Assembly (NCBI GenBank): GCA_947482345.1
Contig: CANKJN010000001.1
Location: 1,558 to 65,557 of the forward strand
DNA from: Spartobacteria bacterium
GTDB taxonomy: Bacteria; Verrucomicrobiota; Verrucomicrobiia; Chthoniobacterales; UBA6821
Direction: 5' to 3'
Length of the DNA: 64,000 nt
Shown here: piece by piece, positions 48,801-53,112 of the stretch
Numbering within the stretch: position 1 is the first letter of the stretch
How the letters are laid out: each line of letters begins with the position of its first letter
Notes under the pieces: generated by a model
The model's input: the letters and a program-made list of their open reading frames with translations, nothing else
Told to the model about the DNA's origin: nothing
Databases searched by the model: none
Position numbers and translations under genes: made by a program

Positions 48801-50966
<2,166 letters not shown>

Positions 50967-51031
50967 TGTCACCGAGCATACGGGGGCTCCTCGGCGGGTC
51001 AATAGGGGAGTGTGACCGCAGAGTGAGGTTT

Positions 51032-52708
51032 TTAACCGACGGGGGGTATCTTGAGCTTGTAGTCCCTGTCGAGATCCTCCGCAGGGAGAGGCTGGCTTTC
51101 CGACTCAGGGATGAGGACTTGGACATAGGCCGCCCCGTCGTGCTTCTCGATTTTGGCGAGGACTTCCTCGAGTTCGGCAACGGTGCCGACCTTGGCCGAA
51201 AGCCATCCCTTACATCCGAAAGCCTCCGGGAGAAGGTGGTAGTTCAGCTTGGCCAGATCGTCGTAGAGGTGGCCGCGCTCGCTGACCATGTCCTCGACGC
51301 CGTAGATGTCGTTATTCAGGACGAAGATCACGGGCTTGATTCCGTAGCGGCCCATCACCCCGAGTTCATTGAGCGTGAGCTGGTGGGAGCCGTCGCCGGT
51401 GACCATCCAGGTGCGACCGCTCTTCTTACCCATGCAAACGCCTAGGGTTGCAGGAGTTCCCCAGCCGATCGAGCCCCAGAGCCCTTGCCCCTCGGCCTCG
51501 ACCCCCTCGGTAAGCAGCATGCCGTTGAGATGGAACATGCAGGTGCCGGTCTCGATGACTAGCGTGTCCCCGGATTTGAGAAGACGCTGGAGGCGGGGAT
51601 AAAAGGTAGAGGATGAGAGTGTGTCTGACCCGGTGCCCTTGACAGGAAGCAAGGCCTTTTCCGAAACAACTGACTCGGTTCGGGGCGTCACCCTGGAGAG
51701 GAGTGCGTCGATCACATCTTCGATCGCCGTGTTCGCGAAGACCTTGTCCCCGAGTTGAACGTGATTGTCCCGGATCGAGACGACCCTCGAAGGGTCGAGA
51801 TCGTCGGAAAAGAGGCCGGTGTTGAGTTCGGCGGGGATCATTCCCCCGATGTCGAGCACGAGGTCGGCCCCCTCGATGACCTGCTTGACGGAGGAGGGGG
51901 TGGACATCTTCCCGTTGTAGAGCCCGATGTGCTGCGGCATCGATTCGTCGAGAACCCCCTTGTCGCAAGGAGTGACCGCAGCGGGGAGATTGATCTTTTT
52001 GACGAGTTCGCGGGCTTTGTCACGGATTCCGTAGCGGGCAGTAAGGGCTGTGACGAGCGCGACGGGATTCTTTGCCTTTTCAAGCCTCGCCATGATGGAG
52101 GTTACAGAGGCCTCGAGTTCGGCGGGGGCGCTCTGTTGGCGCTTGATTTGCCCGATGGGTTTGCCGGTGACTGGAGTGCCGACCAGAGGAGTGTACCCGG
52201 AGAGCTCCGAGATCACGATGTAGGCGGGCTTGCTCTGGCGCAGCGCCTCGCGGATCGCACGTTCGAGTTCGTCGATGCAGTTGTCCGGCGTCAGGATGGC
52301 GGTCACACAGGCGGCGGCACCCGAAATCGCGATGAATCGGTCGTAGTTAGTGTCGCCGAGGTTGTGATGGGTGATGAGTGCCTGCCTCTGGATGCGTTCG
52401 CTCGGCATTCCAACCAGGTGAAAGACGGGCAGTCGGTGGGCCAGGCTCCCCATGACACCGTTGATCGCGGAGAGTTCGCCCACGCCGTAGGTCGTGGTGA
52501 GGATCGCCGCCCCACGGACGCGGGCATAGCCGTCGGCGGCATACGCGGCGTTCAGTTCATTCGCACAGACGACCCATTCAAGTCCGGGGACATTCTCGGC
52601 GGCATCGTCGATAGAGAACGCGTAATCTCCGGGAACTCCGAAAATTTTGTCGATGTCGAGCTGGGAAAGACGGGTGAGGACGTATTCTGCAACGGTTGGT
52701 GTTGTCAT
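51032..52708 (-). CDS. TPP-dependent 2-keto-acid decarboxylase (indolepyruvate/pyruvate decarboxylase family)
   Basis: Start at MTTPTVAEYVLTRLSQLDIDKIFGVPGDYAF. GYARVRG. TPP motif GDGSHQLTLNELGVMGRYGIKPVIFVLNNDIYGVE. The first 28 codons of the track ORF are riboswitch sequence. Confidence 0.88.
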   Translation of the reverse strand: MTTPTVAEYVLTRLSQLDIDKIFGVPGDYAFSIDDAAENVPGLEWVVCANELNAAYAADGYARVRGAAILTTTYGVGELSAINGVMGSLAHRLPVFHLVGMPSERIQRQALITHHNLGDTNYDRFIAISGAAACVTAILTPDNCIDELERAIREALRQSKPAYIVISELSGYTPLVGTPVTGKPIGQIKRQQSAPAELEASVTSIMARLEKAKNPVALVTALTARYGIRDKARELVKKINLPAAVTPCDKGVLDESMPQHIGLYNGKMSTPSSVKQVIEGADLVLDIGGMIPAELNTGLFSDDLDPSRVVSIRDNHVQLGDKVFANTAIEDVIDALLSRVTPRTESVVSEKALLPVKGTGSDTLSSSTFYPRLQRLLKSGDTLVIETGTCMFHLNGMLLTEGVEAEGQGLWGSIGWGTPATLGVCMGKKSGRTWMVTGDGSHQLTLNELGVMGRYGIKPVIFVLNNDIYGVEDMVSERGHLYDDLAKLNYHLLPEAFGCKGWLSAKVGTVAELEEVLAKIEKHDGAAYVQVLIPESESQPLPAEDLDRDYKLKIPPVG

Positions 52709-52747
52709 GGGTGGTGTGGATTTAAACACTTGAGAGAAGATGCCAAA

Positions 52748-52845
52748 GCCTGAGTCTTCTCCCTTCGACGGCATTACCCGTGTCAGGTTCAAAGGGTCGT
52801 CCGGTTGATGTTACGGACCTCTCAGCCGGCTGGCTCCCCCGCATG
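52748..52845 (-). promoter_or_regulatory. TPP (THI-box) riboswitch aptamer, copy 2 (leader of the decarboxylase gene)
   Basis: 98 of 98 nt identical to 50869-50966 (compared base by base). It is followed by a different 39-nt linker with no terminator hairpin/T-tract before the ATG at 52708. Confidence 0.9.
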
Positions 52846-53112
52846 CATCATCAGAATAGGCGCCTTCGGCTTTGGGTCAACGCTCCATGCTGATTCCCGG
52901 CACGGGTCTTTTTGGTCAACTGGTCGCATCCGGCCGGGGAGAGTGGTGTCTTGGGGCGACAAGGATCGCTATCGAAGGAAGGGTTTTTTGAAGGAAGGAG
53001 CAGGAGTCGCGGCTGAGTTCCGTGTTTTTTACTCTCTATGTGCCTGCGATCCCCTCACCACCTGGGTGAACATGGCTTCTCTGCAAGCCGGATTTCACTG
53101 CAAAACCTGGCT

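Follow-up and report, generated by a model that had tools for sequence, protein, structure and literature searches.

A copy of the thiC riboswitch aptamer in front of a thiamine diphosphate-dependent decarboxylase in a freshwater Verrucomicrobia genome: more likely a by-product of recombination than a new circuit

Does a thiamine pyrophosphate (TPP) riboswitch that stands in front of a TPP-consuming enzyme control that enzyme, or did it come to lie there as a result of recombination? The question is raised by a 64,000-nt stretch of DNA (the window; positions 1,558–65,557 of contig CANKJN010000001.1, assembly GCA_947482345.1) from a Spartobacteria bacterium, in which one TPP aptamer precedes the thiamine biosynthesis gene thiC and a second one (copy 1) precedes a neighbouring gene for a thiamine diphosphate (ThDP)-dependent decarboxylase. 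Our analysis indicates that copy 1 is a recent duplicate of the adjacent thiC riboswitch from which the terminator has been lost, and that it is hence more likely a by-product of recombination than part of a new regulatory circuit. The source assembly is a 2.36-Mb metagenome-assembled genome (MAG) of a freshwater Verrucomicrobia in 125 contigs. Labels beginning with G denote genomes of relatives and those beginning with L denote compared loci or contigs; both are labels of this analysis.

Two identical aptamers at one locus

Using cmscan against Rfam, we identified two matches in the window above the gathering score, both to RF00059 and both on the minus strand (Table 1), and these are the only TPP aptamers in the whole assembly. 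Copy 1, ahead of the decarboxylase, scored 61.5 bits (E 1.2e-9) against the gathering score of 54.3 bits, and copy 2, ahead of thiC, scored 59.6 bits. The original prediction, made from the sequence alone, was accurate in placing a TPP aptamer ahead of the decarboxylase, in the 39-nt gap between the end of the aptamer repeat (52748) and the start codon (52708), and in describing a 558-residue enzyme of the pyruvate decarboxylase (PDC)/indolepyruvate decarboxylase (IPDC) family with an intact GDG...NN motif. It missed that the two aptamers are identical copies: they match at 98 of 98 nt, and the flanking sequence differs on both sides.

Alignment to the covariance model showed the core motifs CUGAGA and ACCCUUUGAACCUGA, the helices P2, P3, P4 and P5, and the CG bulge of the P4/P5 arm that serves as the pyrophosphate sensor. 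P3 carries compensatory changes across the genus (GUCCG/CGGAC, GUUCG/CGAAC, GUCUG/CAGAC and GCCUGG/CCAGGC). The P1 helix is the exception, with three of the five model pairs non-canonical; it is essentially unpaired throughout the genus, and the predicted transcript start lies a few nucleotides 5' of P2. By its RF00059 score, core and helices, copy 1 qualifies as a genuine and complete TPP aptamer.

A consensus scan located a promoter-like sequence, TTGACC-N16-TAT(T/G)CT, directly ahead of each aptamer, and a terminator-like site in the thiC leader only, in agreement with the earlier remark that the decarboxylase linker lacks the terminator of the thiC copy. The identity between the copies ends at ...GACUCAGGC. 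Past this point the thiC copy runs into the terminator GGCCACGC...GCGUGGCC, followed by a U-run, and the decarboxylase copy into UUUGGCAUCUUCUCUCAAGUGUUUAAAUCCACACCACCC-AUG. The junction (...CUCAGGC/UUUGGCA) falls exactly at the foot of the thiC terminator, so copy 1 would have kept the promoter and aptamer of thiC and lost its expression platform. The thiC terminator itself is conserved across the genus, with covariation of its arms (GGCCAUGC/GCAUGGCC) in G021 and G002.

We considered whether this layout could be an assembly artefact, namely a chimeric join at an aptamer shared by co-occurring strains. The source is a MAG of many contigs, the aptamer is highly conserved among co-occurring relatives, and the genome G014 shows two different thiC leaders. 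However, in Logan contigs from three DNA runs of two studies, the 98-nt repeat assembles as a unitig of its own, twice as deep as the three flanking pieces, which are themselves equally deep (864 versus about 428, 586 versus about 289, and 26.6 versus about 14); two of these three runs may be the source of the window assembly. Furthermore, an independent metagenome contig from JGI (L115), whose decarboxylase is 97% identical, shows the same order of promoter, aptamer, leader, decarboxylase, promoter, aptamer, terminator and thiC. The two aptamers of L115 differ at two loop positions and are thus distinguishable, so an assembler could resolve them. The junction between aptamer and decarboxylase also occurs in the independent assembly G005, and we regard an artefact as scarcely credible.

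Distribution and origin of the upstream copy

A comparative search for riboswitch-headed orthologues, as the original prediction had proposed, showed that the arrangement is rare. Among 36 genomes of the family and about 85 other orthologue loci, aptamer-headed decarboxylases were confined to the window lineage and G005, and no other examined orthologue has an aptamer in front; the window-type decarboxylase leader itself is present in two of the 36 family genomes (the window genome and G005). A TPP-like leader was found in 18 of the 22 other genomes of the genus. The next gene is always thiC, the only aptamers in the genus that do not precede it being the upstream copies of the window genome and G005. 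One leader per genome is the rule, to which G010 and G014 are exceptions with two thiC leaders each. In these two MAGs the different leaders, each followed by thiC, lie on separate contigs, some of them short (L105 and L113 in G014; L094 and L015 in G010). This points to mixed strains or to close relatives binned together, and cautions that the locus is recombination-prone and liable to assembly breaks.

The decarboxylase is less widespread than thiC. An orthologue of at least 76% identity is encoded in seven of the 22 other genus genomes and a paralogue of about 47% in two more; the remaining 13 gave no match at E <= 1e-30, and all of these genomes without an orthologue keep thiC. In five of the seven orthologue genomes (G018, G005, G001, G009 and G010) the gene lies directly upstream of the thiC leader. 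The usual order, found in L116, L123, L124, L121 and G001, is ribBA, ribH, nusB, ftsY, decarboxylase, promoter-aptamer-terminator, thiC, and in none of the contigs with this ftsY context does an aptamer precede the decarboxylase. We also examined 71 orthologues, mostly of 55–71% identity, from freshwater Mycobacteriaceae, Cyanobium/Synechococcus, Planctomycetota, Methylococcaceae and others. Within 3 kb of these genes the only matches to a regular expression for the TPP core were thiC riboswitches in four genomes that belong to the genus of the window genome, with none outside it. An exact scan of metagenomes with a 21-nt piece of the decarboxylase leader returned one unrelated AT-rich chance match. 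On this distribution, the linkage between riboswitch and decarboxylase is best described as a local peculiarity and not as a conserved regulon.

The decarboxylase lies next to thiC in many genomes of the genus and also on environmental contigs, as would be expected if the enzyme had a role in thiamine or pyrimidine metabolism that explained both the adjacency and the riboswitch, as the original prediction suggested. This explanation fared poorly and we consider it very improbable. The gene is accessory in the genus, and the genomes without an orthologue all keep thiC. The orthologues of 55–71% identity from Mycobacteriaceae, picocyanobacteria, Planctomycetota and Methylococcaceae share no neighbours (clustering of neighbouring genes at 14 distant loci recovered no conserved neighbourhood), and no thiamine genes or aptamers lie near them. 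The genome's own dxs (749 bits), thiG and thiE are at other loci and have no riboswitches, and the full set of PDC catalytic residues points to an ordinary 2-oxoacid decarboxylase. The idea that the decarboxylase replaces Dxs was rejected, given the presence of dxs at that score.

The sequences around the two aptamers form a mosaic. Copy 1 together with about 90 nt of its promoter region shares ~95% identity with the thiC leader of the sister species G012, which lacks the decarboxylase; upstream of this stretch the two genomes show no relationship. The promoter next to thiC almost matches that of G018, in which the decarboxylase also precedes it. The upstream copy of G005 has exactly the sequence of a thiC leader located on a short G014 contig (G014a), and its downstream copy is of the decarboxylase-linked type. 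In the protein tree, the window and L115 enzymes are nested among aptamer-less genes of the ftsY context, and the G005 enzyme belongs to a separate clade with those of G001 and L120 (support 100/99). Over the junction of aptamer and decarboxylase, the 56-nt leader and the initial ~35 nt of coding sequence, the window and G005 are nevertheless ~95% identical, whereas their gene bodies are 73.6% identical and differ at 60% of 4-fold degenerate sites. Such similarity of the leader, despite this divergence and the separate clades, indicates that the module moved between lineages by recombination.

Two further comparisons bear on the history of the locus. In the P3 loop both window copies read AACAUCAAC (AUC), and both L115 copies have ACC instead (AAUACCAAC and AACACCAAC); copies within one genome thus evolve in concert. 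In L120, whose decarboxylase is 78% identical, we identified the promoter (TTGACC..TATTCT) and only the first ~30 nt of the aptamer, up to CUGAGAGG. This remnant (CAUGCAGGGGAGCCGGCUGGCUGAGAGG, within L120:2820-3000, plus strand) gives way to unrelated sequence about 100 nt before the decarboxylase start. The L120 element is a broken remnant from a duplicated leader, with a junction unlike that of the window.

Based on these comparisons, the decarboxylase, with its leader and the promoter downstream of it, behaves as a cassette that lies within the thiC leader between direct aptamer repeats, and that homologous recombination at the aptamer can add, remove or exchange. The arrangement in the window is most likely a lineage-specific product of this process, arisen by recombination at the aptamer sequence. 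Gene conversion or exchange with the selected thiC copy would then keep the upstream copy intact. The decarboxylase would be transcribed from a thiC-type promoter through the aptamer, whose binding of TPP would have no dedicated read-out, leaving decarboxylase expression largely independent of TPP. Transcription would continue into the second, complete riboswitch, which would still gate thiC.

Does copy 1 regulate the decarboxylase?

In a survey of 564 TPP sites in 249 genomes, all regulated genes function in thiamin synthesis or transport (PMC3766115), which bears out the earlier view that the target of copy 1 is unusual. Our literature search found no bacterial TPP riboswitch ahead of a decarboxylase or other TPP-dependent enzyme. 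Copy 1 shares with RF00059 riboswitches that control thiC by termination the aptamer core and a score above threshold, and its thiC counterpart has the classic terminator platform. It differs from them in having neither a terminator nor predicted sequestration of the start site, and in preceding a PDC-family gene in place of one for thiamin synthesis, salvage or transport, a TPP-consuming class missing from the 564-site survey (PMC3766115). Copy 1 thus fails two hallmarks of these riboswitches, a coupled expression platform and a thiamin-related target. As in other duplicated TPP riboswitches, the thiC leader has been duplicated locally, with recombination at the leader the likely cause here. 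In contrast to tandem riboswitches (PMC9481103), the copies in the window are split by a whole gene with its own promoter and do not form a cooperative tandem on one open reading frame (ORF). The arrangement is new in its gene association and architecture, and probably not in mechanism.

Constrained folding of the decarboxylase leader yielded a mean unpaired probability for the start region of 0.66 when folded freely and 0.67 with the aptamer enforced. In place of the thiC terminator this leader contains a hairpin, GGGAGAAGA/UCUUCUCUC, which was present in the minimum-energy fold whether or not the aptamer helices were enforced; the ligand-bound aptamer leaves room for its 7-bp form, and the consensus scan did not score the hairpin as a terminator. 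Equilibrium folding of the whole leader gave a z-score of +1.0 relative to shuffled sequences. The earlier suggestion that this copy acts with a different logic was thus right about the terminator-less linker, but the leader folding that it called for shows no ligand-dependent change and speaks neither for nor against an altered logic.

The linker also gave little sign of constraint. Between the window and L115 it differs by five substitutions in 50 nt and a 6-nt deletion, against a neutral yardstick of 13.3% at 4-fold sites of the decarboxylase, and so appears to evolve at about the neutral rate. The deletion in L115 removes CUCAG, a segment found unchanged in every thiC leader of the genus. 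The aptamer shows three changes in 98 nt, all in loops, a conservation for which gene conversion by the thiC copy, itself under selection, would be a sufficient explanation. That the L120 lineage let its aptamer decay and kept the promoter suggests that the aptamer is dispensable. From these observations we infer an absence of regulation, and we give about an even chance to copy 1 being a passenger aptamer without a read-out.

Several points weigh against this interpretation. Three assemblies have an intact aptamer, and the few changes in it spare paired and core positions, a pattern that would also be expected from selection for ligand binding. The 7-bp GGAGAAG/CUUCUCU stem survives a loop indel and is kept in L115 and G005, and the occurrence of the same leader module in two divergent lineages could reflect an advantage. 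Equilibrium folding is blind to kinetic, Rho-dependent and protein-mediated read-outs. We detected no Shine-Dalgarno sequence at either the decarboxylase or thiC, both of which have pyrimidine-rich leaders, so translational control would look non-canonical at this locus. The sole metatranscriptome run yielded two short contigs of 90–99% identity that cover only the coding region of a relative and leave the leader and the transcript ends uncovered.

Most of these points lend some weight to the possibility that the duplicated aptamer truly places the decarboxylase under TPP control, by co-induction with thiC or as an ON switch, through a read-out other than a terminator (Rho or Shine-Dalgarno-independent initiation). 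We consider this tentative and on the whole somewhat unlikely. Its principal form is an OFF riboswitch, in which TPP lowers decarboxylase expression through, for example, Rho-dependent termination or the leader hairpin; the apoenzyme would then be co-induced with thiC when TPP is scarce, a compensatory over-production as in yeast. This reading draws on the complete, above-threshold aptamer with substitutions confined to loops, on the stretch from the hairpin to the early coding region, which is pyrimidine- and C-rich, G-poor and predicted to be unstructured, and on the presence of the module in two divergent lineages. A precedent exists in yeast, where Pdc2, acting with Thi3 and Thi2, jointly upregulates the PDC and THI genes in thiamine starvation (PMC11304959, PMC10246790). 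There a ThDP decarboxylase of the same family (PDC5) shares a thiamine-responsive input with thiamine biosynthesis genes. In yeast, however, the control lies with protein transcription factors and is experimentally established, whereas regulation by an RNA aptamer is putative here. Set against an OFF riboswitch are the lack of a predicted terminator or start-site sequestration, the near-neutral rate of the linker and the loss of the conserved CUCAG in L115, the decay of the aptamer in L120, and gene conversion from the thiC copy, which explains intactness without selection. Taken together, we judge an OFF switch to be unlikely.

The opposite logic, in which bound TPP would release the UCUUCUCUC tract or promote expression in some other way, would be sensible for a cofactor-consuming enzyme, as the apoenzyme would be made only when its cofactor is available. 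Riboswitches for molybdenum cofactor (Moco) and adenosylcobalamin (AdoCbl) are linked to cofactor-dependent enzymes, and a TPP-activated gene has reportedly been described in Neurospora. The 9-bp form of the hairpin (GGGAGAAGA/UCUUCUCUC) overlaps two P4 pairs and could compete with the ligand-bound fold. However, the 7-bp form fits the bound aptamer and forms in both folding states, and the accessibility of the start region is unchanged. With no U-tract next to it, the hairpin does not qualify as a terminator that could be disrupted to turn expression on, and the evolution of the linker shows no supporting constraint. An ON switch is accordingly quite improbable.

If copy 1 does regulate the decarboxylase, the TPP regulon would reach beyond synthesis and uptake of the cofactor to one of its consumers. 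The locus would then provide the first bacterial example of a TPP-consuming enzyme under a TPP riboswitch, as well as a bacterial RNA counterpart of the yeast PDC5/THI link, and a riboswitch regulon would have been caught growing by duplication of a leader around a gene cassette. If copy 1 is a passenger, the locus would still present a conserved aptamer that serves as a substrate for recombination and through which a cassette is inserted, deleted and carried between related species, and an aptamer kept intact by gene conversion and not by selection. It would also illustrate that the annotation "riboswitch upstream of gene X" can mislead regulon inference.

The decarboxylase, thiC and a shorter aptamer

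The decarboxylase contains the TPP_enzyme_N, M and C domains (PF02776, PF00205 and PF02775), all above their cut-offs. Its best NCBIfam match, TIGR03393 (indolepyruvate decarboxylase), reached 387 bits against an equivalog cut-off of 946, and substrate specificity was therefore left unassigned. The best matches in the PDB were yeast PDC1 (1QPB), Enterobacter cloacae IPDC (1OVM) and Lactococcus lactis KdcA (2VBF), which align end to end with phmmer E-values of around 1e-92 to 1e-86. The alignment to 1QPB places GVPGDY, ANELNAAYAADGYA, THHNLG, NNDIYGVED and GDGSHQ...NND at corresponding positions. The catalytic Asp, Glu, His-His and Glu of PDC enzymes are all kept, equivalent to Asp28, Glu51, His114/His115 and Glu477 of yeast PDC1, as is the ThDP/Mg motif GDGS...NND. 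With these residues and this motif in place, the protein should be an active 2-oxoacid decarboxylase with the three-domain ThDP fold. It differs from PDC1, IPDC and KdcA in its low TIGR03393 score and in belonging to a patchy freshwater clade of 55–71% identity across phyla.

This clade comprises proteins from MAGs of freshwater Mycobacteriaceae, from Cyanobium/Synechococcus, Planctomycetota and Methylococcaceae, and from Chthoniobacterales/Terrimicrobiaceae. At the loci compared (the window and L033–L093) the gene context is different every time, which suggests that the decarboxylase spread horizontally among lake bacteria.

The thiC gene matched NF006763 at 1021 bits. Its likely start is the ATG that gives 663 residues, since the start sequence ATGATCGCCCC is conserved in relatives and the thiC of L115 was also called at 663 residues. 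The longest ORF (682 residues, from GTG 50849) would begin inside the terminator.

In the window, the consensus scan detected no terminator between the decarboxylase stop codon and the second promoter and thiC leader. In L007 (G001), L010 and L015 (G009 and G010) and L120, the interval from the decarboxylase stop to the thiC aptamer contains a perfect 10-bp inverted repeat, GGCCGCACUC...GAGUGCGGCC, around the -35 box of the thiC promoter. A U-rich stretch comes next, and the repeat may serve as a terminator for the decarboxylase that overlaps the thiC promoter. In the window this repeat has degenerated (about 50975–51020), a sign that transcription of the decarboxylase may read through into the thiC leader. 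Transcription initiated at the upstream promoter probably extends into the second, complete riboswitch, and control of thiC should be unaffected whether or not copy 1 regulates. The earlier proposal that the upstream leader serves mainly to drive read-through into thiC is therefore plausible as far as the missing terminator is concerned, but such read-through is not needed, as thiC has its own promoter and complete riboswitch.

Table 1. Features of the decarboxylase-thiC locus in the window, and shorter aptamers in compared loci.
Feature	Position	Strand	Remarks
Sigma-70-like promoter, TTGACC-16-TATTCT	52853..52880	-	Just upstream of copy 1; predicted start a few nt before the aptamer
TPP aptamer, copy 1	52743..52850	-	98-nt repeat unit 52748-52845; P4/P5 arm complete, P1 poorly paired
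Leader hairpin GGGAGAAGA / UCUUCUCUC, 7-9 bp	52732..52763	-	Takes the place of the thiC terminator
Decarboxylase, 558 aa, ThDP-dependent, PDC/IPDC/KdcA family	51032..52708	-	ATG 52708, stop 51032; Pfam and PDB matches
Second sigma-70-like promoter, TTGACC-16-TATGCT	50975..51002	-	Between the decarboxylase stop and copy 2
TPP aptamer, copy 2	50864..50971	-	Repeat unit 50869-50966; the thiC riboswitch proper
Intrinsic terminator GGCCACGC...GCGUGGCC + U-run	50832..50871	-	thiC expression platform; none in copy 1
thiC, phosphomethylpyrimidine synthase	48801..50792	-	NF006763, 1021 bits; 663 aa from ATG 50792
Short aptamers	L102:1501-1595, L103:1501-1596, L109:1501-1596, L015:774-868	+	Below RF00059 threshold
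Short aptamer	L110:1501-1596	-	Below RF00059 threshold
Short aptamer, ahead of the decarboxylase in G005	L112:1501-1596	+	Below RF00059 threshold

Ahead of thiC in other members of the genus we also identified a shorter TPP-like aptamer of 95–96 nt. It scores 31–38 bits, under the RF00059 gathering score, and is missed by standard Rfam annotation. It is the only TPP-like leader in about 11 of the 22 other genus genomes and also occurs on contigs L120, L121 and L123. The P4/P5 pyrophosphate-sensor arm (ACGGGUAAUGCCGUCGAAGG) is replaced in this variant by a plain hairpin, CCUGAC-NNNN-GUCAGG, with the loops ACAG, GCAG, UUGG, ACGG, AGAG and CCAA; promoter, P2, P3, terminator and thiC are unchanged. 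The CG bulge of the P4/P5 arm contacts pyrophosphate, and the short variant is without it. According to a review, thiamin or thiamine monophosphate (TMP) is the preferred ligand of some RNAs that are assigned to the TPP riboswitches (PMC9481103). Having no CG bulge, the short variant may by analogy sense thiamin, TMP or a hydroxymethylpyrimidine (HMP) compound.

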